Positions 37,769-48,459 of a stretch of 64,000 nucleotides of DNA are shown one piece after another. The stretch covers positions 2,695-66,694 of the forward strand of contig JAHDYM010000005.1 in NCBI GenBank assembly GCA_023383705.1. Direction: 5' to 3'. The notes under the pieces are model-generated. The model was given only the letters and a program-made list of their open reading frames with translations, did not search any database and was not told the origin of the DNA. The stretch comes from Gammaproteobacteria bacterium (GTDB taxonomy: Bacteria > Pseudomonadota > Gammaproteobacteria > Steroidobacterales > GCA-2729495). A program made the position numbers and the translations under genes. Numbering within the stretch: the stretch's first letter is position 1; each line of letters starts with the position of its first letter.

Positions 37769-37902
37769 CTGCCACCCCCCCCTGTGGACAGCGGTCCCCC
37801 GGCATTTCGGGTAACGAAGCGTTGTTGAACGGAAGGCGGCCAAGCCCCCATCGCCCTGACATCAGAATCGAAATTCATTTATAGAAACCCCGTTACGACA
37901 TA

Positions 37903-37931
37903 TTGACAAGGCCAGCGTTGCCCAGTACTGT
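37903..37931 (+). promoter_or_regulatory. putative sigma70 promoter of the R-M/defence operon, bracketed by an 11-bp inverted repeat
   Basis: TTGACA (37903-37908), 17-nt spacer, TACTGT (37926-37931). It sits in an A/T-rich stretch about 40 nt upstream of ATG 37971. CCGTTACGACA (37890-37900) and TGTCGTAACGG (37947-37957) flank it. Confidence 0.4.
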
Positions 37932-37970
37932 GTCGCCACAGTCAGTTGTCGTAACGGCGTTTTTGCATTT

Positions 37971-38540
37971 ATGTACCTTGGTAGGCTCGCCGAAGTCCAG
38001 ATGGGCTTCCCGTTCCGGTCGCGTCTGGAGCACGACCCGCAGGGCGACGTGGCGGTAATCCAGATGAAAGACATCGATGGCGCCAACCTGCTCCATGCTG
38101 AGGAGGCCATCAGGGTGATGCTGCCAAAGGGCAAGACACGTCACATGTTGCGAGCGGGCGACCTGCTGTTCCGCTCGCGCGGTCGCAGCAATGGTGCGGC
38201 ACAGGTAATGGAGGGGATCGGCTCGGCCGTGCTTTCTGCGCCGATGCTGCTGATCCGGCCCCGCGGCGTGCTGCCCGAGTACCTGTGTTGGTACCTCAAC
38301 ACACCGGCCACCCAGGCGCAGCTTGCGGCGATGGCAGAGGGTACGTCGGTACGGATGATCAGCGCCGAAGCCCTGAAGACGCTGGACGTGCCGCTGCCCC
38401 CGCTGGACGTACAACGTCGCATCGCCCAGGCCGCCGCCCTGGCGGAACAAGAAAAAACGCTGCTGGCGCGGATCGCCACCCTTCGCGAGCGCCTGTCCAC
38501 CCAACTCCTGATCAAGTTTGTCCGTGAGGCCACGCCATGA
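37971..38540 (+). CDS. hsdS: type I restriction-modification specificity subunit, half-size (single target-recognition domain)
   Basis: 189 aa. It has one TRD followed by one conserved coiled region (LPPLDVQRRIAQAAALAEQEKTLLARIATLRERL). Its stop overlaps the hsdM ATG (ATGA). Confidence 0.7.
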   Translation: MYLGRLAEVQMGFPFRSRLEHDPQGDVAVIQMKDIDGANLLHAEEAIRVMLPKGKTRHMLRAGDLLFRSRGRSNGAAQVMEGIGSAVLSAPMLLIRPRGVLPEYLCWYLNTPATQAQLAAMAEGTSVRMISAEALKTLDVPLPPLDVQRRIAQAAALAEQEKTLLARIATLRERLSTQLLIKFVREATP

Positions 38541-40111
38541 CTGAACAGCTCATCCAGCAAGACGTCAACAACACCGCCTGGGCGGCCTGCGACACCTTTC
38601 GCGGCGTCGTCGACCCGGCGCAGTACAAGGACTACATCCTGGTGATGCTGTTCCTCAAGTACATCAGCGACCAGTGGGCCGACCACTACGCTGAATACCG
38701 GAAGGAGTACGGCGACAACGAGGAGCGCATCCGCCGCAAGCTGGAGCGCGAGCGCTTCATCCTCCCCTACGTCGAATTCAAGGACGAGAAGACCGGCAAG
38801 GTCACCGACCGTTTCCTGGCCGACTTCCATGCCCTGTACGAGCGGCGCAAGGCCGCCAACCTCGGCGAGCTGATCAATATCGTGCTCGACCACATCGAGG
38901 AGGCCAACAAGGCCAAGCTTGAAGGTGTGTTCCGCAATATCGATTTCAACTCCGAGGCCAATCTCGGCAAGACCAAGGACCGCAACCGCCGCCTGGAAAA
39001 CCTGCTGGGCGATTTCGCGAGGCTCGACCTGCGCCCCTCCCGCGTCTCCGAGGACGTGATCGGCAATACCTACATTTACCTGATCGAGCGTTTTGCCTCC
39101 GACGCCGGCAAGAAGGCTGGCGAGTTCTACACGCCCAAGCAGGTCTCGAAGCTGCTGGCGCAACTGGCCGCGCCCAAGCCCGGTGACCGCATCTGCGACC
39201 CCACCTGCGGTTCCGGTGGCCTGCTGATCGAAGCCGCCGCACTGGTCGAGGCGCAAGGCAGCCACGGAAATCCAAACAAGGACTTTGCCCTGTTCGGCCA
39301 GGAGGTCAACGGCAGCACCTGGGCACTGGCACGCATGAACATGTTCCTGCACGGCAAGGACGCAGCCCGCATCGAGTGGGGCGATACCCTCAACAGCCCG
39401 GCACTCGTCGAGGCCGACCGTCTGATGCGCTTCAACGTGGTGGTAGCCAACCCGCCATTCAGTCTGGACAAGTGGGGCAGCGCAGAGGCCGCGGCCGACC
39501 GCTACAGCCGATTCTGGCGCGGCCTGCCGCCCAAGTCCAAGGGCGACTATGCCTTCATCACCCACATGATCGAGACCGCGCTGCCGCAGGAAGGTCGCGT
39601 GGCCGTGGTGGTACCCCACGGTGTGCTGTTCCGGGGCGGTGCCGAAGGCCGCATCCGCCGTGCGCTGATCGAGGAAAACCTGCTGGATGCCGTCATCGGC
39701 CTGCCGGGCAACCTCTTCCCCACCACCTCCATCCCGGTCGCCATCCTGGTGTTCGATCGCGCCCGCGAGAAGGGCGGCGCCCGCGAAGCCTGCCAGGACG
39801 TGCTCTTCATCGACGCCAGCCGCGATTATCAGTCCGGCAAGAACCAGAACGCCCTGCTGGACGAGCATATGGCCAAGGTGCTCGCTACCTTCCGTGCCCG
39901 GCAGCCGGTGGACAAATATGCCCATGTGGCGAGCCTCCAGGAGATCGCCGACAACGACTTCAACCTCAACATCCCGCGCTACGTGGACACCTTCGAAGAA
40001 GAAAAAGAGATCGATGTGGCTGCGGTCGAGCAAGAGATCGAGCGACTGGAAGGCGAACTGGCGGAAGTGCGCGTGCGCATGAAGCAGTACCTCAAGGAAC
40101 TTGGCATATGA
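38537..40111 (+). CDS. hsdM: type I restriction-modification N6-adenine DNA methyltransferase subunit
   Basis: 524 aa. It has an HsdM N-domain, SAM motif I (DPTCGSGGLL) and catalytic motif IV (VVANPPFS). Confidence 0.95.
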   Translation: MTEQLIQQDVNNTAWAACDTFRGVVDPAQYKDYILVMLFLKYISDQWADHYAEYRKEYGDNEERIRRKLERERFILPYVEFKDEKTGKVTDRFLADFHALYERRKAANLGELINIVLDHIEEANKAKLEGVFRNIDFNSEANLGKTKDRNRRLENLLGDFARLDLRPSRVSEDVIGNTYIYLIERFASDAGKKAGEFYTPKQVSKLLAQLAAPKPGDRICDPTCGSGGLLIEAAALVEAQGSHGNPNKDFALFGQEVNGSTWALARMNMFLHGKDAARIEWGDTLNSPALVEADRLMRFNVVVANPPFSLDKWGSAEAAADRYSRFWRGLPPKSKGDYAFITHMIETALPQEGRVAVVVPHGVLFRGGAEGRIRRALIEENLLDAVIGLPGNLFPTTSIPVAILVFDRAREKGGAREACQDVLFIDASRDYQSGKNQNALLDEHMAKVLATFRARQPVDKYAHVASLQEIADNDFNLNIPRYVDTFEEEKEIDVAAVEQEIERLEGELAEVRVRMKQYLKELGI

Positions 40112-41118
40112 GTGGTGGCGAGCTGATCCTCTACACCGCCGAGGATGGCAGCGCCGCCATCCAGCTGCGTGCCGAAGACGGCACGGTCTGGCTGACGCAG
40201 CTCGAAATGGCCACGCTGTTCGACACCTCCAAGCAGAACGTCAGCCTGCACATCAAGAACATCCTGGCCGAGGGCGAACTGTCTCCGGCAGTCGTCAAGG
40301 AATACTTGACAACTGCCACTGACGGGAAGAACTACAAAACAAAGGCTTACAACCTCGACATGATCCTGGCCGTCGGCTACCGGGTGCGCTCCCCGCGCGG
40401 CACCCAGTTCCGCCAATGGGCCACCACCCACCTGCGCGAATACCTGGTCAAGGGTTTCGTGCTGGACGACGCCCGGCTCAAGGAGCCCGGTGGCTGGGAC
40501 TACTTCGACGAACTGCTGGCGCGTATCCGCGATATCCGCGCCTCGGAGAAGCGCTTCTACCAGAAGATCCGCGACATCTACGCTACCGCCGTGGATTACG
40601 ACAGCAAGTCGGAGGCTGCCCAGCTGTTCTTCAAGAAGGTACAGAACAAGATGCTCTGGGCCGTCACCGGCCACACCGCGCCCGAGCTGATCGCCGGCCG
40701 CGCCGACCCCGCCCTGCCCAACATGGGCCTTACCACCTGGGCCGGCGGCCGGGTGCGCAAGCAGGATGTCACCATCGCCAAGAATTACCTGAGCCAGGAC
40801 GAGATCGAGGCGCTGGATCGCATCGTCGTCATGTACCTCGACTATGCCGAGGACCAGGCCCAGCGTCGCTGCACCCTGACCATGCTCGACTGGGAAGACA
40901 AGCTCGACGCCTTCCTGCAGTTCAACGAGCGCGAGGTGCTGACCCACGCCGGCAAGCTGCGCGCGGATGTAGCGGAGAAGCTGGCGTTAGAGCGGTACGA
41001 GAGTTTCGACGCCGCTCGGCGTGAAGCGGCGCGGCTGGCGGCGGATGCCGTAGACATGGCGGCGCTGGAGAAGGCCGAACGGCAACTGGAAGGCAAGGGG
41101 CGGGGGAAGAGAAAATGA
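40108..41118 (+). CDS. rhuM: RhuM-family protein
   Basis: Start trimmed to ATG 40108 (ATGA overlap with hsdM). MSGGELILYTAEDG...IQLRAEDGTVWLTQLEMATLF...NVSLHIKNI...LDMILAVGYRV.S..GTQFRQWAT is the typical RhuM N-terminus. Confidence 0.8.
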   Translation: MSGGELILYTAEDGSAAIQLRAEDGTVWLTQLEMATLFDTSKQNVSLHIKNILAEGELSPAVVKEYLTTATDGKNYKTKAYNLDMILAVGYRVRSPRGTQFRQWATTHLREYLVKGFVLDDARLKEPGGWDYFDELLARIRDIRASEKRFYQKIRDIYATAVDYDSKSEAAQLFFKKVQNKMLWAVTGHTAPELIAGRADPALPNMGLTTWAGGRVRKQDVTIAKNYLSQDEIEALDRIVVMYLDYAEDQAQRRCTLTMLDWEDKLDAFLQFNEREVLTHAGKLRADVAEKLALERYESFDAARREAARLAADAVDMAALEKAERQLEGKGRGKRK

Positions 41119-42332
41119 AAACGCCCGTCAATTGGAAAAGCACGCTGCTTCATCGTGTTGCCGAAGTTCGATCTGGTCTGTCGAAGAGCACGAAACGCGA
41201 AGGACCGACTGTCAGGAAACCCTACTTGCGGGTTGCGAATGTCCAAGACGGCTTCCTTGACCTGTCAGAAATCAAGGAAATCGATGCGCCAGAGAATCAG
41301 GTCGCGCGCTTCACGTTGAAGCAGGGAGACCTGCTGCTAATTGAAGGCAACGGCAATCCTGAAAACCTCGGGCGCGGATGCATTTGGGATGGCCAAATCC
41401 CGGAATGCGTCCATCAGAACCATGTCTTCGCCGTACGGACTCTGCCCGACGCTGAAATGCTGCCGGAGTTCATGGCGCTTCAGCTTCAGTCAGATCACGG
41501 ACGCAATTATCTCCTTTCATGCGCAAAGGGTTCGACAGGTCTATCTACGCTCAACTCTGCGCAGTTGAAGGAGTTCCCTCTACTCTCGCCGTGCGTCACA
41601 GAACAGCGATCCATTGTCGCTGCGATTGCGACCTGGAACACCGCCATCCAGAGAACCGAGCAACTGATCGCGGCGAAGGCGAGGCAAAAAGCTGGTTTGA
41701 TGGCTGAATTGCTTACTGGGCGCCGGCGTCTTGCCGGGTTCCAGACGGCGTGGCGCACTTGGCATCTCGGTGAGTTGTTCCGGGAACGGGTGGAGAACAA
41801 CCGGAAAGACCTGCCCCTGCTCTCAATCACAAGAGAGGAAGGAGTAGTCCCACGAGATTGTCTTGACCGAAAAGACACCGCCAGCGAAGACAAGTCGAAG
41901 TACCTGCGTATCTGCCCAGGCGATATTGGTTACAACACCATGCGAATGTGGCAAGGCGTTTCGGCACTGTCTCGCCATGAAGGAGTTGTCAGCCCCGCTT
42001 ACACGGTTTGCATTCCTGGCCCGGAGATTGACGGCACGTTTGCGTCCTACTTGTTCAAGCTGCCGGAAGTGGTTCACCTGTTCTACCGCTTCTCACAGGG
42101 CCTAACCTCGGACACATGGAACCTAAAGTTCCACCACTTCGCGGCAATAAGAGTTCGTATCCCTGAGCCCGAAGAGCAAGTCGCTATTGCTTCACTTCTC
42201 TCGATTCTTGATGAGGAACTGGCGCTCATCAGGCAACAACGCGACGCACTTGCACATCAGAAGCGCGGCCTGATGCAGAAGTTGCTCACCGGCCAGTGGC
42301 GGCTGCCCATCGAGGAGGAGGCAATGGCATGA
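41115..42332 (+). CDS. hsdS: type I restriction-modification specificity subunit, full length (two TRDs)
   Basis: 405 aa. It has two variable TRDs separated by and ending in conserved helices (...KAGLMAELLTGRRRL... and ...KRGLMQKLLTGQWRL). The DNA here is visibly more A/T-rich than its surroundings. Confidence 0.9.
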   Translation: MKTPVNWKSTLLHRVAEVRSGLSKSTKREGPTVRKPYLRVANVQDGFLDLSEIKEIDAPENQVARFTLKQGDLLLIEGNGNPENLGRGCIWDGQIPECVHQNHVFAVRTLPDAEMLPEFMALQLQSDHGRNYLLSCAKGSTGLSTLNSAQLKEFPLLSPCVTEQRSIVAAIATWNTAIQRTEQLIAAKARQKAGLMAELLTGRRRLAGFQTAWRTWHLGELFRERVENNRKDLPLLSITREEGVVPRDCLDRKDTASEDKSKYLRICPGDIGYNTMRMWQGVSALSRHEGVVSPAYTVCIPGPEIDGTFASYLFKLPEVVHLFYRFSQGLTSDTWNLKFHHFAAIRVRIPEPEEQVAIASLLSILDEELALIRQQRDALAHQKRGLMQKLLTGQWRLPIEEEAMA

Positions 42333-42832
42333 GCGATCTCATCACCAAACTGGCCGACGAGGCCAACCGGATCGAGGAAGACACCGAGCACTCGTTCAAG
42401 GGGCACTACAACGCGGCAGCGCGCTGGGGCCGCTATCACCTTTGTATCGGCTTACCCGCCGCGCTGTCGGCGGCGAGCGCCGGTGCAGCCGCCTTCAGGG
42501 ACCAGCCGGAGTGGGCAGGTGCGCTTGCGCTGGTGTCCACCGCGCTAACAACCGTATTGACGTTTCTGAAGCCATCGGAGCGGGCGGAGATGCACAAAGC
42601 CGTCGCCGGTCAGTACCAGTCGCTGCGCAATCAGGCACGTATCTTTCGGGAGATCGGCCTGTTGGACGGCATGGCGCCTGAGGAAGCCAAGACCCGCCTG
42701 TTCGCACTTGCAGAGGCACGTGACGAACTAAACCAGCGGGCGCCAGCCATCGCACGTGGTGATTACGAGTTGGCAAAGCAGGATATCGATGGCGGGCGGG
42801 CCCGCTACCGTGCAGATGAGTCGAAACCATGA
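42329..42832 (+). CDS. SLATT-like small membrane protein (two adjacent TM helices flanked by helical regions), putative pore-forming effector
   Basis: Start at ATG 42329 (ATGA overlap with hsdS), giving 167 aa. The N-helix is followed by YHLCIGLPAALSAASAGAAAF, then RDQPE, then WAGALALVSTALTTVLTFL, then a charged helical tail. It lies immediately upstream of a SMODS-type NTase. Confidence 0.65.
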   Translation: MSDLITKLADEANRIEEDTEHSFKGHYNAAARWGRYHLCIGLPAALSAASAGAAAFRDQPEWAGALALVSTALTTVLTFLKPSERAEMHKAVAGQYQSLRNQARIFREIGLLDGMAPEEAKTRLFALAEARDELNQRAPAIARGDYELAKQDIDGGRARYRADESKP

Positions 42833-43647
42833 CTATTAACAGCTATCTCTCCGGCCTTGCTATTCAGGCGATCCTCCGCGATGACGAGAAAGCGAGCGTG
42901 CAGCGTTCGATTATTGCGTTGCAAACCCGCTTGGCCAACCACTTTGGTACACAGATCGATCGGCACTTTGTGTTTGGCTCCTATAGCCGTGGAACCATCC
43001 TGCCCCGTTCGATGGATCCGCAATCGGATGTCGATTACATGGTGGTCTTTGCCGATACCGGACTACAGCCGCAAAGCTACTTGGATCGTCTGCGTCGATT
43101 CGCTGAGGTCCAGTACGCCCGATCCGAAGTGGCGCAATCGAACCCGACTGTGGTGCTGGAACTCAACCACATTCGCTTCGAGCTGGTTCCCGCTGTAAGG
43201 AACTGGATCGGTGGCCTGCAGATCCCCGGCAAGGGCTCCGGTTATCAGAGTTGGCAAGATACCGACCCGAACGGTTTCAACCAGACGCTGAGCAACACAA
43301 ATCAGGCCAATGGCAATCTCATCAAGCCCCTGGTCAGAGTCATGAAGTACTGGAACGCCACGGCCGATTACCCCTTCGAGTCCTATGCACTGGAACAACA
43401 TATTGCTGGGCAGGGATATAGCTTCCTTGGGCTGCTTGCCTCTCGCCAATTGGCGCAATACTTCTTCGAAGCTGTCGACTCACTAGAAGCGGGCTGGTAC
43501 TCGCCGCAATGGAAGCAGGATGCGGTACGACGTCTTAAAGAGTTGGCCTCTCATGCCCAGTCCAAAGAGCGGTCTGGCCAACCGGGCGTTGCGGAAATCA
43601 CGCTCAGGCGACTGCTGCCCCCAGTTGGCCGCGCGGTGAGGGTCTGA
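42829..43647 (+). CDS. SMODS / minimal Pol-beta-fold nucleotidyltransferase (CD-NTase-like)
   Basis: 272 aa, with ATG overlapping the SLATT stop (ATGA). The NTase motif is FGSYSRGT (G50-S51), then D67-V-D69 (nt 42976-43035). A third acidic residue lies in RFELVPA (E118). Confidence 0.7.
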   Translation: MTINSYLSGLAIQAILRDDEKASVQRSIIALQTRLANHFGTQIDRHFVFGSYSRGTILPRSMDPQSDVDYMVVFADTGLQPQSYLDRLRRFAEVQYARSEVAQSNPTVVLELNHIRFELVPAVRNWIGGLQIPGKGSGYQSWQDTDPNGFNQTLSNTNQANGNLIKPLVRVMKYWNATADYPFESYALEQHIAGQGYSFLGLLASRQLAQYFFEAVDSLEAGWYSPQWKQDAVRRLKELASHAQSKERSGQPGVAEITLRRLLPPVGRAVRV

Positions 43648-43649
43648 CG

Positions 43650-46600
43650 GTGGACTCCTTCCGCTTCGATGAGAAATACCTCTCCCAGATCCCAGCGCTA
43701 CAGGTCCTGGTCAATCTGGGCTACCAGTACCTGACGCCTGCCGAGGCGCTGGCCGCACGCGGCGGCAAGGCCGGTAACGTGCTGCTGGAGGAGATCCTGC
43801 GCGAGCAATTGAAGAAGCGGAACCGCATCCAGCACAAGGGCGGCAGTTATCTCTTCAGCGAGGAGAACATCCAGAGCGCTATCCAGCGTCTGAAGAACGT
43901 CAAGTACGACGGTCTGCTCAAGACCAACGAGGCGGTGTACGACCTGTTGACGCTGGGCGTGGCGCTGGAGCAAACCATCGAGGGCGATCTGAAGAGCTTC
44001 ACCCTCAACTACATGGACTGGCGCAACCCGGCAAACAACGTCTATCACGTGGCCGCCGAGTTCGCGGTGGAGCGCACGCGCAGCGTGGAGACCTGCCGGC
44101 CGGACGTCGTGCTGTTCGTCAACGGCATCCCCTTCGCGGTGATCGAATGCAAATCGCCCAGGGTCGAGGTGGCCCAGGCTATCTCGCAGACCATTCGCAA
44201 CCAGCGCGACGAGTACATCCCGCGCCTGTTCAGTTATGTGCAGATGGTGCTGGCGCTCAACAAGAATGAGGCGCGCTACGCCACCACCGGCACCCCAGCC
44301 AGGTTCTGGTCGAAATGGAAGGAGGACGTGGCGGATGCTGAGTTGGCGCCACTGCTGGAGCGCCCGCTGCCGGAGTCGGTCAAGGCCTCGCTGTTCGATC
44401 TGGCCTTTGCCGAGCTGGGTGTACGCGAGGAAATCGCGCCCTATCTGGTCGGCCGGCAGGTGACCGAGCAGGATCGAACACTTTACGCGCTCTGCCGCCC
44501 TGAACGCCTGCTGGAAATGGCCTGGGCCTTCACGGTGTTTGATGGCGGCGTGCGCAAGATCGCGCGCTACCAGCAGATGTTCGCCATTCGCGAGGTGCTC
44601 GCACGCGTCAAACAGACGGACGACAGCGGCAAGCGGCGCGGTGGCATCGTCTGGCACACCCAGGGTTCGGGCAAGTCGCTGACCATGGTGATGCTGGCGC
44701 GCGCGCTGGCACTGGAACCCGCGATCCGCAACCCGCGCATCGTGCTGGTCACCGACCGGGTGGATCTGGACAAGCAGCTCGGCAACACCTTCACCGCCTG
44801 TGGCCTTTCGCCCGACCGCGCCGAGAGCGGCCGCCACCTGGTGGAGCTGGTGTCAGACGGAAAAGCGCATATCGTCACCACCCTGGTGCACAAGTTCGAC
44901 AAAGCGCTGGCCTACAAGAAATTCAGCGACGCCTCGCCCGACATCTTCGTGCTGGTGGACGAGACCCAGCGTACACAGCTGGGCGGCTATTCGGCGCGCA
45001 TGCGGCAGATGTTCCCCAATGCCTGCTACATCGGCTTTACCGGCACGCCACTGCTCACTCGCGAGAAAAGCGATGTCGCCAGGTTCGGTGGTGTGATCCA
45101 CACCTATGCCATCGACCAGGCGGTGGCCGACGGTGCCATCGTGCCGCTGCTCTATGAAGGGCGCATGGTGGAGCTGGAGCAGAACCAGGCGGCGATCGAC
45201 GTCTGGTTCGAGCGCCACACCCAGGGTCTCACCGACCCGCAGAAGGCCGACCTCAAGAGGAAGTACGCCCGCGCCGAGATGCTGAACAAGGCCGAGCAGG
45301 TGATCTACATGCGTGCCTTCGACATCAGCGAGCATTACCGCCAGAACTGGCAGGGCACCGGCTTCAAGGCACAGCTCGTGGCCCCCAACAAGGCGGCGGC
45401 GCTGCGCTACAAGGCATTTCTCGATGAGCTGGGCACGGTCAGCAGCGAGGTGATCATCTCCCCGCCCGATGAGCGAGAAGGCTTCGATGAGATCGATGCC
45501 GAGGAGTCCAGCGATGCGGTAGTGGCCTTCTGGCAGCGCATGATGAGGCGCTATGGCTCGGAGGAGGACTACAACAAGCAGATCGTCAACGCCTTCAAGT
45601 TCGGCGAAGAGCCGGAGATCCTGATCGTGGTGGACAAGCTGCTGACCGGCTTCGACGCACCGCGCAACACCGTGCTCTATCTCACCCGCCGGCTCAAGGA
45701 CCACTCCCTGCTGCAGGCCATCGCCCGGGTGAATCGCCTCTACGAAGATGAGTCCGGCAGCAAGGCCAAGGACTTCGGTTACGTCATCGACTACGTGGGC
45801 GTACTCGGTGAACTGGACCAGGCGCTGAGCACCTACAGCGCCCTGGATGGATTCGAGGCGGCGGATCTCGAGGGCGCGCTGACCTCGATCCATGCGGAAG
45901 TCCGGGCACTGCCGCAGCGCCATGCGGAACTGTGGGACCTGTTCAAGACGGTGAAAAACCGTCAGGACGAGGAGGCCTTCGAACTGCTGTTGTCGAATGA
46001 AAAGCTGCGCGCGGATTTCTACGAGCGGCTGACAGCCTACGCGAAGACTTTGGGGATAGCGCTGTCCAGCGAACGCTTCATCACCGAGACGCCAGAGCAG
46101 AAGCTGCACACCTACAAGAACGATCTGAAACGCTTCGTCAATCTCAAGGCAGCAGTGAAGCTGCGCTATGCCGAGTCCGTGGACTACCGCGATTTCGAGT
46201 CGCGCATCCAGAAACTGCTCGACACGCACATTTCGGCTTCCGAAGTGGTGCGATTGAATGCACCGGTGAACATCTTCGACGAAGCCGCATTTCAGAAAGT
46301 CGTTGAGGAACAGGGCGCTGGCGGCGAGAAGAACCTGGGCGCCAAGGCCGACATGATCGCGCACGCTACCAGGCGCGCCATCAACGAGCGGCTGGAGCAG
46401 GACCCGGCCTTCTACGAGAAGTTCTCGAAGCTGATCCAGCAGGCCATCGACGACTACCGCGCCAGGCGCCTGTCTGATCTGGAGTACCTGCAGCGTGTCA
46501 CCGAGATCAGGCAAGCCGTGGTCTCGCGCAAGGGCGACGACCTGCCGCCGGCGCTGAATGGTGACGCCGATGCGGCCGCCGTCTATGGCCTGCTGCGCCC

Positions 46601-46865
46601 CTTCGTGGCGAGCCATCTGAGCGATACCGAGCAGGCCCGGAGCACCGCCGCCGAGGCCGCCGTGGCGGTGTGGGATATCTTCCGGCGCAACAGGAAGGTG
46701 GGCTACTGGGACGACCTAGACGCGCAACGCCGCACCATGAACGAGATCGACGACTATCTCTATGACGACGTGAAGGGCGCGCGCGGCATCGCGCTATCCA
46801 CCGACGAAATGGACGAGATCATCGAGAAGACCATGCAGCTCGCCCGCCACCGGATGGAAGGGTGA
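43650..46865 (+). CDS. hsdR: type I restriction enzyme R subunit (helicase/nuclease)
   Basis: 1071 aa with GTG start 2 nt after the NTase stop. It has an N-terminal PD-(D/E)xK region (PDVVLFVNGIPFAVIECK). The SF2 motifs are TQGSGKS, VLVDETQR and FTGTP, with the later helicase motifs also present. Confidence 0.95.
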   Translation: MDSFRFDEKYLSQIPALQVLVNLGYQYLTPAEALAARGGKAGNVLLEEILREQLKKRNRIQHKGGSYLFSEENIQSAIQRLKNVKYDGLLKTNEAVYDLLTLGVALEQTIEGDLKSFTLNYMDWRNPANNVYHVAAEFAVERTRSVETCRPDVVLFVNGIPFAVIECKSPRVEVAQAISQTIRNQRDEYIPRLFSYVQMVLALNKNEARYATTGTPARFWSKWKEDVADAELAPLLERPLPESVKASLFDLAFAELGVREEIAPYLVGRQVTEQDRTLYALCRPERLLEMAWAFTVFDGGVRKIARYQQMFAIREVLARVKQTDDSGKRRGGIVWHTQGSGKSLTMVMLARALALEPAIRNPRIVLVTDRVDLDKQLGNTFTACGLSPDRAESGRHLVELVSDGKAHIVTTLVHKFDKALAYKKFSDASPDIFVLVDETQRTQLGGYSARMRQMFPNACYIGFTGTPLLTREKSDVARFGGVIHTYAIDQAVADGAIVPLLYEGRMVELEQNQAAIDVWFERHTQGLTDPQKADLKRKYARAEMLNKAEQVIYMRAFDISEHYRQNWQGTGFKAQLVAPNKAAALRYKAFLDELGTVSSEVIISPPDEREGFDEIDAEESSDAVVAFWQRMMRRYGSEEDYNKQIVNAFKFGEEPEILIVVDKLLTGFDAPRNTVLYLTRRLKDHSLLQAIARVNRLYEDESGSKAKDFGYVIDYVGVLGELDQALSTYSALDGFEAADLEGALTSIHAEVRALPQRHAELWDLFKTVKNRQDEEAFELLLSNEKLRADFYERLTAYAKTLGIALSSERFITETPEQKLHTYKNDLKRFVNLKAAVKLRYAESVDYRDFESRIQKLLDTHISASEVVRLNAPVNIFDEAAFQKVVEEQGAGGEKNLGAKADMIAHATRRAINERLEQDPAFYEKFSKLIQQAIDDYRARRLSDLEYLQRVTEIRQAVVSRKGDDLPPALNGDADAAAVYGLLRPFVASHLSDTEQARSTAAEAAVAVWDIFRRNRKVGYWDDLDAQRRTMNEIDDYLYDDVKGARGIALSTDEMDEIIEKTMQLARHRMEG

Positions 46866-47572
46866 AGGCCATGGTTGGCAGCCTGACCTACGGCCGGGAC
46901 ACTATCCGCTACGAGGTACGCTTCCTCACATCGCGCCAGACGCTGGCCATCGAGGTCCATCCCGACAGTCGTGTGCTGGTGCGCGCACCGATGGGCTGTC
47001 CGGAGGCCCTGATCGTGGAGCGGCTGCAGAAGCGCGCTGGCTGGATCAGCCGGCAACTGGCCGAGTTCGAGCGCTATCGCCCCCGTACTCCGGCGCGACA
47101 GTACGTCAACGGTGAATCGCACCTTTATCTTGGCCGGCAGTACCGGCTGAAGCTGATACCGGGCGATGCGGCCGGCGTGAAACTCGCACGTGGCGTGATG
47201 CTTGTCAGCCTGCCTGGTGACGCTGACCCGGAGCGCGTCAAGGCGCTTCTGCATCGTTGGTATCTCGACCGTGCCCGGGCCGTGTTCAGCGAAGTCCTGG
47301 AAGCCGGACTTCTCCACCTGAAGGGCATCGACCAGCCGCATCTGATGGTGCGTGCAATGCAATCTCGCTGGGGCAGCCTGTCACGCGCCGGCACCATGAC
47401 ATTGAACGTGAATCTGGTGCGCGCGCCTCGCCCCTGTATCGAATACGTGGTCACCCACGAGCTGTGCCATATCCGGTACCGCGATCACGATGGCCGGTTC
47501 TTCAAGCTGCTTGGGCAGCTGATGCCCGATTGGGAGAACCGTAAGCGGAAACTGGAGGCGGCGTTGCTATGA
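46862..47572 (+). CDS. M48/YgjP-like (DUF45) zinc metallopeptidase
   Basis: 236 aa. The GTG start overlaps the hsdR stop (ATG 46871 is the alternative start). It carries the HELCH zinc motif (VVTHELCHIRYRDH). Confidence 0.8.
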   Translation: MKAMVGSLTYGRDTIRYEVRFLTSRQTLAIEVHPDSRVLVRAPMGCPEALIVERLQKRAGWISRQLAEFERYRPRTPARQYVNGESHLYLGRQYRLKLIPGDAAGVKLARGVMLVSLPGDADPERVKALLHRWYLDRARAVFSEVLEAGLLHLKGIDQPHLMVRAMQSRWGSLSRAGTMTLNVNLVRAPRPCIEYVVTHELCHIRYRDHDGRFFKLLGQLMPDWENRKRKLEAALL

Positions 47573-47697
47573 GGTGCTGCCGAACCGATGGTCTGCTCGA
47601 TGCCGGTACCAACCATGCTTAAGATAGCCGCCCTTCGGCGTGTTCTGAGTTATCACGTCCCGTGGCACAATTCGCCCCATTCACCGGAGAGAACTCG

Positions 47698-47958
47698 ATG
47701 TTTCAGGCAATGATTCGCGGCGCAGTGCTGGCCGTGTTGCTGGTCGCGACGGCACAGGCCGGGGGCACGCAGTCGCCAGCAACGGCAGCAGCAGGCAAGC
47801 CTGCACCCGTTGCGCAGGCCAACGCTGTGCGCAAGGCTTTGGTGGCGCAGGACGGGCAGGTGGAACTTGCGGCATCACAATTCAGCGATGCGCAGCTTGC
47901 CGGCATGCGTCCGGACTATGCGCAGCTCAAGCCCCGCGCACGTACCAATGCCGAGTGA
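47698..47958 (+). CDS. small secreted hypothetical protein
   Basis: ATG 47698 with GGAGAG upstream. The signal peptide is MFQAMIRGAVLAVLLVATAQA. There is no recognisable domain. Confidence 0.45.
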   Translation: MFQAMIRGAVLAVLLVATAQAGGTQSPATAAAGKPAPVAQANAVRKALVAQDGQVELAASQFSDAQLAGMRPDYAQLKPRARTNAE

Positions 47959-47997
47959 CTGAATCCCTCTTTGCGTCCTTGAGATCTGGTTGAGGTC

Positions 47998-48459
47998 ATG
48001 GCCCGACGCCATCCGGCACTGATTCCGGTTGCCCGCGATCATCATGAATGCCTGATTCTGGCCCAGCGCCTGATGCACGGTACGACGGCACCGGCTCGCG
48101 ACTGGCCGCGCGAGCCGGCGCCACAGGCTGAGCTGCTGGCTGCGTTCTTCAGGCGGCATCTGCAGGCGCACTTCGCGGTCGAGGAGGCACTGGTATTCCC
48201 GGCAGCCCGGGTTGCCGGGCCTGCAGCGGAAGCCCTGGTCGCGCAACTCCTCGACGAGCACCGGAAAATGACCAGCCTCGTCGCCCAGCTGGCGGCCAAC
48301 CCGCAGGTCACGGTGGCCGAGTTGCGTGCCTTTGGTGAATTGCTGAACGCCCACATTCGCCTGGAGGACCGGCAGCTCTTCCCGATGATGGAAACAGGGA
48401 TGCCGGCCGATGCGCTGCTGGACCTGCAGCGGCTGGTTGAAGCACGTTACGCGCCCTAG
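47998..48459 (+). CDS. hemerythrin (HHE cation-binding) domain protein
   Basis: 153 aa. His/Glu pairs recur on helices (DHHECL, HLQAHFAVEE, LDEHRKM, NAHIRLED). Confidence 0.7.
   Translation: MARRHPALIPVARDHHECLILAQRLMHGTTAPARDWPREPAPQAELLAAFFRRHLQAHFAVEEALVFPAARVAGPAAEALVAQLLDEHRKMTSLVAQLAANPQVTVAELRAFGELLNAHIRLEDRQLFPMMETGMPADALLDLQRLVEARYAP

Follow-up and report, generated by a model that had tools for sequence, protein, structure and literature searches.

The guilt-by-embedding survey of Payne, Hughes, Fineran and Jackson (2024; bioRxiv 10.1101/2024.01.29.577857) found that 96.7% of embedded genes share the orientation of their host system and that PrrC is nearly always embedded. PrrC, encoded in the EcoprrI (type IC) hsd locus, is an ABC-ATPase-like anticodon nuclease that acts on tRNA(Lys) and is restrained by physical association with the restriction-modification (R-M) enzyme (reviewed in PMC12707154). 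In the RRDM island of enteropathogenic Escherichia coli (EPEC), with the order rptR-hsdM-hsdS-darT-darG-hsdR, DarTG2 is embedded in a type I R-M system behind an RptR-repressed promoter (PMC12255303), and the GmrSD-like type IV system TgvAB is embedded in the type I R-M cluster of Vibrio cholerae VPI-2 (PMC11411939). A lactococcal plasmid system consisting of SLATT and a nucleotidyltransferase (NTase) with AGS-C was shown to defend (PMC11381338). Here we describe a related locus at positions 37971–47572 of a 64,000-nucleotide (nt) stretch of a Gammaproteobacteria bacterium (contig JAHDYM010000005.1, positions 2,695–66,694; this whole stretch is called the window). It encodes, in this order, a half-size HsdS, HsdM, RhuM, HsdS, a SLATT protein, an NTase, HsdR and a YgjP-like protein. 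Since the nesting of defence genes in type I R-M systems is already established, the eight-gene operon is not in itself a discovery; among type I R-M operons that carry defence cargo it is well preserved but otherwise ordinary. The architecture seen across the family merits follow-up, as does the distribution, similar to that of PrrC, of one embedded lineage of the cyclic-oligonucleotide-based antiphage signalling system (CBASS).

We consider the locus probably to be a type I R-M operon in which a fixed frame carries two slots for interchangeable, promoter-less defence cassettes, and not a co-evolved eight-gene unit. In the window, the non-core genes are nested between core genes on the same strand, rhuM between hsdM and hsdS (slot 1) and SLATT-NTase between hsdS and hsdR (slot 2). 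The frame half-hsdS-hsdM-[slot 1]-hsdS-[slot 2]-hsdR-ygjP is constant in ∼100 related loci. In a sample of 80 metagenome loci collected with HsdR as the seed (HsdR 62–95% identical), the ygjP-like gene follows hsdR in 73/73 informative loci. Half-hsdS precedes hsdM in all 33 informative loci (30 at the level of open reading frames (ORFs) and three more by tblastn). Both genes therefore belong to the core of this hsd family and are not cargo. The preliminary description of the locus had counted three cargo modules; RhuM and SLATT-NTase are indeed variable cargo, whereas the third, the YgjP/M48-like protein, is an invariant part of the core.

The turnover of the cargo itself is high. Embedded genes were found in 46 of the 49 complete interiors, RhuM in 28 and the SLATT-NTase pair in seven; elsewhere RhuM is replaced in slot 1 by Bro-N or KilA-N proteins, or it sits in slot 2. 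Alternative cargo of slot 2 comprises HAD hydrolase, DUF3800, Shedu SduA (SduA_C), DUF4917, Abi_2, OLD/AAA ATPases, Fic and SIR2-like proteins, and at least four other cassettes of cyclic-nucleotide type: SMODS-AGS_C with SLATT_6, Cap15 with an NTase, SAVED-HNH with a DncV-like protein (with or without patatin), and E2/E1/JAB with MBL. Operons with 90–95% identical HsdR carry other cargo or none, and at this level of identity RhuM and CBASS vary between loci (L069, L070, L071, L076, L078, L081, L109 and L115 vs. L067, L073, L082 and L083). Both slots can take more than one cassette, as the stacked cargo of an eleven-gene version indicates (L171, 1146–12972: halfS-hsdM-BroN-RhuM-hsdS-SLATT-NTase-75aa-Fic-hsdR-YgjP). 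The locus had been proposed to be a single selected unit, with a survey of related hsd loci named beforehand as the observation that could overturn this; the survey showed cargo that is freely variable among operons with nearly the same HsdR, and the proposal is not supported.

DNA comparison with relatives points the same way. Homology covers positions 37946–41118 and stops at the rhuM/hsdS overlap. In loci with CBASS it restarts at 42258, which is 75 nt ahead of the hsdS stop codon; in loci that lack CBASS it restarts at 43639–43658, the start of hsdR. It ends at 47572–47577. The breakpoints fall on gene borders. The G+C content at third codon positions (GC3) is 0.85 for hsdM, rhuM and hsdR vs. 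0.63–0.72 for hsdS, SLATT and NTase, with hsdS at 0.63. The target recognition domains (TRDs) of the window's HsdS are unrelated to those of close relatives: HsdS is only 25–35% identical where HsdM or HsdR is 90–95% identical. The C-terminal helix of HsdS (QKRGLMQKLLTGQWR) is kept throughout the family and can be regarded as a possible left recombination arm for slot 2. Mapped on the HsdR tree, CBASS presence requires 12 changes, at least eight of which are forced by well-supported branches (mean for shuffled labels, 14.7). The NTase and HsdR trees are incongruent, and in approximately unbiased (AU) tests the clade of either tree was rejected for the other protein (p = 0.006 and 0.0009). With cassettes probably being exchanged between hsd operons, the eight-gene set of the window is therefore one of many combinations.

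Some points weigh against reading the locus as a fixed frame with exchangeable cassettes. The groups used in the AU tests were named after the trees had been seen, and the metagenome sample may hold near-duplicates. Internal promoters may exist within the operon; the NTase gene, for instance, may contain one that serves hsdR. Finally, the confinement of the CBASS pair to slot 2 (below) may point to a functional link with the R-M complex that goes beyond co-expression.

Loci were also collected with the NTase as the seed. In a search with one genome per species, five of five NTase matches with at least 68% identity lie in the order halfS-hsdM-(rhuM)-hsdS-SLATT-NTase-hsdR-ygjP; the hosts are an Acidobacteria metagenome-assembled genome (MAG), Pseudoxanthomonas suwonensis, a Lysobacterales MAG and two other MAGs. 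A distant match at 45% identity (L019) has the same gene order, and free-standing homologues show no more than 52% identity. A protein search gave more than 1,400 NTase homologues, with more than 120 clusters at 58% identity or above. Eight clusters with 59–76% identity, picked only for their long contigs, were looked up, and all eight again occupy slot 2 of this hsd family. In this small sample of NTase-seeded loci (13/13, at least 59% identity) the SLATT+NTase lineage thus occurs only in slot 2 of the hsd family, and the embedded copies group together in essentially a single clade of the NTase tree. The gene order recurs in unrelated bacteria (e.g., L004, L067, L073 and L083), and on the complete Methylococcus capsulatus chromosome CP097161 all eight genes stand in the identical order, with a small DUF2188 ORF in addition. 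The slot-2 restriction of this lineage is a new finding, and its distribution is PrrC-like. Our literature search, which did not extend to the paper defining SMODS and SLATT (Burroughs et al., 2015), found no report of CBASS inside a type I R-M operon or of the slot restriction of the lineage.

Decayed copies of the composite operon were also seen. In a Burkholderiaceae MAG (L005, 7058–9765), SLATT is split by a 2.7-kb insertion encoding an IS21-type transposase, and the NTase gene and hsdR are frameshifted. In L077 (1764–2666) and the protein cluster P0118, the N-terminus of RhuM is fused in frame to the C-terminus of the NTase, so that PF13310 and PF18144 lie in one 306-aa product; this is a deletion scar from which hsdS and SLATT have been removed.

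By analogy with PrrC, SLATT-NTase might be silenced by the intact type I complex and fire in an hsd-dependent manner once a phage knocks that complex out with an anti-restriction protein (Ocr, ArdA or Stp-like). The 13/13 slot occupancy and the essentially single clade of embedded NTases speak for this, as does the near-exclusive embedding of PrrC in the same slot (bioRxiv 10.1101/2024.01.29.577857; PMC12707154), and the cyclase is short, with neither an extra sensor domain nor a Cap2/Cap3 partner. Nevertheless, we regard such a control as improbable: the cassette is missing from ∼80% of the family's hsd operons, it moves between operons with diverged HsdR (tree incongruence), so that tight co-evolution is not seen, and the slot restriction is more simply accounted for by a promoter-less cassette that spreads only via homologous recombination in the hsd flanks. 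If true, it would mean that a type I CBASS has a defined trigger. With a CBASS lineage found only between hsdS and hsdR, R-M control of CBASS is directly testable in culturable M. capsulatus or in E. coli.

It also seems doubtful that the cassettes, as selfish and promoter-less hitch-hikers, depend on the hsd operon just for expression and spread and give no host defence or are decaying. Their high turnover and the decayed copies (the IS21 insertion with frameshifts in L005, and the rhuM-NTase deletion fusion in L077/P0118) would fit, but the eight ORFs of the window are intact with conserved catalytic residues, the great majority of the cargo families are known or candidate defence genes, and defence has been demonstrated for relatives of several of the embedded systems (PMC11411939, PMC12255303, PMC11381338). 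Least probable of all is a co-selected eight-gene composite machine whose parts (the R-M core, RhuM, SLATT-NTase and the peptidase) evolved together and are mutually dependent. In its favour are the recurrence of the order in distant hosts including M. capsulatus, the tightly coupled junctions and the true inseparability of half-hsdS and ygjP from the core; against it are RhuM and CBASS that come and go among operons with 90–95% identical HsdR, 8–12 gains or losses of CBASS on the HsdR tree with incongruent NTase and HsdR trees, breakpoints at gene borders, a mosaic GC3 and many other cargo sets in the same slots.

The architecture of the operon was confirmed by re-reading the DNA (Table 1). 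The eight co-directional ORFs are all in frame at exactly the coordinates given before, the seven junctions are five ATGA overlaps, one GTGA overlap and one 2-nt gap as first described, and the earlier gene identities were upheld by profile searches with Pfam, PADLOC and NCBIfam.

Table 1. Genes and promoter elements of the hsd locus (window coordinates; aa, amino acids).
Feature	Position	Strand	Junction with next gene	Basis or remark
Promoter region, two operator-like quasi-palindromes	37884..37966	+		Sequence reading; putative function
Quasi-palindrome, site 1	37884-37900	+		TAGAAACCCCGTTACGA; upstream of -35
-35 element TTGACA	37905-37910	+		Followed by -10-like TACTGT
Quasi-palindrome, site 2	37946-37966	+		TTGTCGTAACGGCGTTTTTGC; just before the half-hsdS ATG
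Half-size HsdS, first gene	37971..38540	+	ATGA, 38537-40	189 aa; one TRD and one coiled-coil helix
HsdM, N6-adenine DNA methyltransferase subunit	38537..40111	+	ATGA, 40108-11	TIGR00497, Pfam, motifs
RhuM-family protein, slot 1 variable cargo between hsdM and hsdS	40108..41118	+	ATGA, 41115-18	Pfam, PADLOC PDC-S05
Full-length HsdS	41115..42332	+	ATGA, 42329-32	405 aa; two TRDs; Pfam, PADLOC
SLATT-family two-transmembrane effector, first gene of slot 2 cassette	42329..42832	+	ATGA, 42829-32	167 aa; NCBIfam, PADLOC
SMODS/CD-NTase-type nucleotidyltransferase, minimal	42829..43647	+	2-nt gap, TGA-CG-GTG (hsdR GTG at 43650)	272 aa; Pfam, PADLOC, PDB
HsdR, motor-nuclease subunit	43650..46865	+	GTGA, 46862-65	1071 aa; TIGR00348, Pfam, motifs
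YgjP-like (DUF45, WLM/SprT-type) HExxH protein, last gene	46862..47572	+		Pfam

In the host genome, ∼16% of closely spaced gene pairs on one strand overlap by 4 nt, and no run of consecutive overlap junctions elsewhere exceeds three, against five here; this baseline comes from a crude gene call and is rough, as two crude ORF-based callers mis-called the hsd operon itself (antisense and over-extended ORFs). Measured against it, six overlaps at seven junctions, five of them in a row, are well above chance. The overlaps are a property of the whole family, present at 197/407 junctions across 87 loci, those with unrelated cargo included (hsdM to cargo, 12/18; hsdS to cargo, 11/32). The counts are 10/13 for hsdS to SLATT and 60/81 for hsdR to ygjP. 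The NTase-hsdR junction is a gap of 0–15 nt in 13/15 loci. Since they occur whatever the cargo, the overlaps are no proof that the gene combination of the window was selected. A small ORF lies between half-hsdS and hsdM in many relatives; there is none in the window, where the two genes overlap. It encodes DUF2188 in L166 (2438–2680) and L168 (3511–3756), and an unannotated 101-aa product in L167, L169, L170, L172 and L173.

A consensus scan of the + strand found no promoter-like sites within the operon, and the sole terminator-like match near it, at 37947–37959, is upstream of the first gene; the scan is insensitive at 63% G+C. Judging from the overlaps, the lack of consensus internal signals and a conserved promoter only before half-hsdS, all eight genes are probably read as a single transcript. 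The view of the locus as one compact, co-directional, translationally coupled defence operon is supported.

The core proteins are those of a type I R-M system. HsdM matches TIGR00497 with 276 bits (cut-off 243) and Pfam HsdM_N and N6_Mtase, and both the S-adenosylmethionine-binding motif ICDPTCGSG and the catalytic NPPF were found. HsdS is matched by Pfam Methylase_S in two stretches and by PADLOC Specificity_I over its full length (E = 1e-65). HsdR matches TIGR00348 with 477 bits (cut-off 285) and Pfam HSDR_N, SWI2_SNF2 and T1R_D3-like; it contains a nuclease motif D152...E166-x-K168 of the PD-(D/E)xK type and the Walker A sequence GSGKS of a superfamily 2 motor. With HsdM, a two-TRD HsdS and HsdR all present, sequence-specific methylation and ATP-dependent restriction activities are predicted. 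The half-size HsdS matches PADLOC PDLC03199 (E = 4e-26) and, in the PDB, the HsdS chains 5ybb/3okg (E ∼ 2e-13) and the half-S homodimer Esub1 (8vsr/8vsq, E ∼ 1e-6). Its orthologues are 40–83% identical, and a TRD swap was never seen among them, unlike in the full-length HsdS.

RhuM matches Pfam Virulence_RhuM (E = 1e-112) and the PADLOC phage-defence candidate PDC-S05 (E = 1e-149). In slot 2, the SLATT protein scores 117 bits against NCBIfam SLATT_4 (cut-off 55), matches the PADLOC CBASS two-transmembrane effector PDLC00712 (E = 2e-64) and has two hydrophobic helices. The NTase matches Pfam SMODS (E = 2e-36, 126 bits; cut-off 26.5), PADLOC cyclase PDLC00769 (E = 2e-106) and, in the PDB, CD-NTase/CdnD structures (E ∼ 1e-7 to 1e-6); with 99 bits it falls below the NCBIfam CBASS_cyclase_b equivalog cut-off of 200. 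Across 63 homologues, residues G50-S51, D67-x-D69 and E118 show little or no variation. Pfam and PADLOC profiles found no Cap2/Cap3 or HORMA/TRIP13 genes in the operon. A cyclase with an adjacent effector is the composition of a minimal type I CBASS, and the pair is predicted to synthesize a cyclic oligonucleotide and to act by abortive infection.

The YgjP-like protein is recognized by Pfam (E = 9e-57) and carries HELCH at residues 199–203. PADLOC, NCBIfam and PDB gave no informative match as to its function, and a literature search for a link between YgjP/DUF45 and HsdR found nothing relevant. The linkage of this HExxH protein to HsdR is absolute in our sample.

The putative promoter before half-hsdS lies between two operator-like sites of about 17 nt that resemble CAGWAA-N5-TTWCTG. 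The same layout (quasi-palindrome, TTGACA, 17 nt, -10, second quasi-palindrome, ATG) is common to relatives from unrelated hosts and was found before half-hsdS also in L067, L073, L075, L090-L105, L123, L131, L135 and L166-L173. An explicit palindrome search showed that the arms vary with the type of half-HsdS; the length of the 5-nt spacer is fixed and its sequence is variable. Loci whose half-HsdS is 52–57% identical to that of the window have AGAAA-N5-TTTCT (10/11 loci), TGTAA-N5-TTACA is seen in the group with 43–46% identity, and CAGACA-N5-TGTCTG occurs twice in L075, where half-HsdS is 39% and HsdM 94% identical. In a 12-mer repeat test between the promoter flanks, 24/32 loci gave at least 10/12 matches; shuffles often did equally well.

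As the arms track the half-HsdS type with a fixed N5 spacer, half-HsdS may be the DNA-reading regulator of the operon or may direct methylation of its own promoter. This suggests, as a lead and not a result, that a DNA reader of the homodimer type recognizes the promoter palindromes; half-HsdS could be an autoregulator or, with HsdM, a methylase. Because the gene adjoins the sites, linkage alone could also yield the pairing of arms with half-HsdS. An engineered EcoR124I enzyme with an N-terminal half-S subunit is said to read GAA-N7-TTC. This enzyme recognizes a symmetric site (PMC3320862), and the half-S homodimer Esub1 was proposed by its authors to be transcription-factor-like (PMC11754733). 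As with the YgjP-like protein and HsdR, the linkage of a half-HsdS with matching palindromes to the promoter is absolute.

The hsd unit is flanked by modABC on one side, and by a small secreted ORF, a hemerythrin gene and a convergent gene of xanthine-dehydrogenase type on the other. A search of the window gave no tRNA gene, and none of the ORFs scanned next to the 9.6-kb unit, on either side, is a mobility gene. The interval from modC to the dehydrogenase gene (37769–48455) measures 10.7 kb in the window and holds the hsd unit, the small secreted ORF and the hemerythrin gene. In relatives of the genus it is 0 kb in G009 (L153), where modC abuts the dehydrogenase gene, and ∼3.8 kb in G042 (L162) and G002 (L164); the G042 interval encodes a trypsin-like peptidase, an FAD oxidoreductase and DUF2231. 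Since the unit is missing at the same site in these relatives, it was acquired horizontally. Among the genomes searched, the only close HsdR within the genus is in G021 (86% identity), where the related hsdR-ygjP adjoins metF and metH, a site different from that in the window; no NTase was found in this 87%-complete assembly. We also considered the modC-dehydrogenase site as a defence hotspot of the genus, which was not supported, as the relatives hold housekeeping-type genes or nothing there.

On the preferred reading of a fixed frame with exchangeable cassettes, half-hsdS, hsdM, hsdS, hsdR and the ygjP-like gene would be read from one conserved promoter between two operator-like palindromes, and the slots after hsdM and after hsdS would take promoter-less cassettes joined by start/stop overlaps, in the window RhuM (PDC-S05) and SLATT with the 272-aa CD-NTase, respectively. 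One polycistronic mRNA may then give stoichiometric, co-regulated expression. As a first line, the M2S complex would methylate host DNA and R2M2S would cut unmethylated incoming DNA. As a second line, upon phage escape, a cyclic nucleotide signal from the CD-NTase would open the SLATT pore and the infection would be aborted. RhuM and the YgjP-like protein may supply further functions. The cassettes are probably swapped among related hsd operons by homologous recombination, for which the 3′ end of hsdM, the HsdS C-terminal helix and the 5′ end of hsdR could serve as arms. The anatomy of this very widespread hsd family, with its list of slot cargo, would explain how promoter-less modules shuffle and yet keep their start/stop overlaps.

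The locus falls in the class defined by the guilt-by-embedding survey: additional defence genes lie among the hsd genes and share their orientation, the cargo is diverse and interchangeable, and the RhuM of the window is the candidate PDC-S05 of that work. The main text of the survey makes no mention of CBASS, RhuM or start/stop overlaps (bioRxiv 10.1101/2024.01.29.577857); added here are the half-HsdS/YgjP frame, the two slots, the breakpoints and the slot-restricted CBASS lineage. TgvAB is likewise a two-gene defence module in an hsd cluster, where it gives complementary protection, but it acts by modification-dependent restriction and belongs to another hsd family. The lactococcal type I CBASS resembles the window's pair in having a CD-NTase/SMODS cyclase next to a SLATT two-transmembrane effector with neither Cap2/Cap3 nor HORMA/TRIP13. 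The cyclase of the window differs in being unusually short (272 aa) and in lacking the AGS-C sensor; in addition, the effector precedes the cyclase and the lineage is confined to an hsd slot.

The EPEC RRDM island, also a multi-ORF hsd operon, shares with the window an abortive-infection-type system in the hsdS-hsdR slot, an ORF before hsdM and palindromic operators at a single promoter. Its first gene encodes the 9-kDa RptR in place of a half-HsdS, its repeats are TAGCTA and not the ∼17-nt CAGWAA-N5-TTWCTG-like sites, and its cargo is DarTG2 instead of a CBASS pair with RhuM; regulation in the window is putative. PrrC occupies the same hsdS-hsdR slot, and its lineage, too, is almost only embedded in type I R-M systems. 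PrrC is a tRNA nuclease bound to the R-M enzyme, whereas the cargo in slot 2 of the window is a predicted nucleotide-signalling pair.

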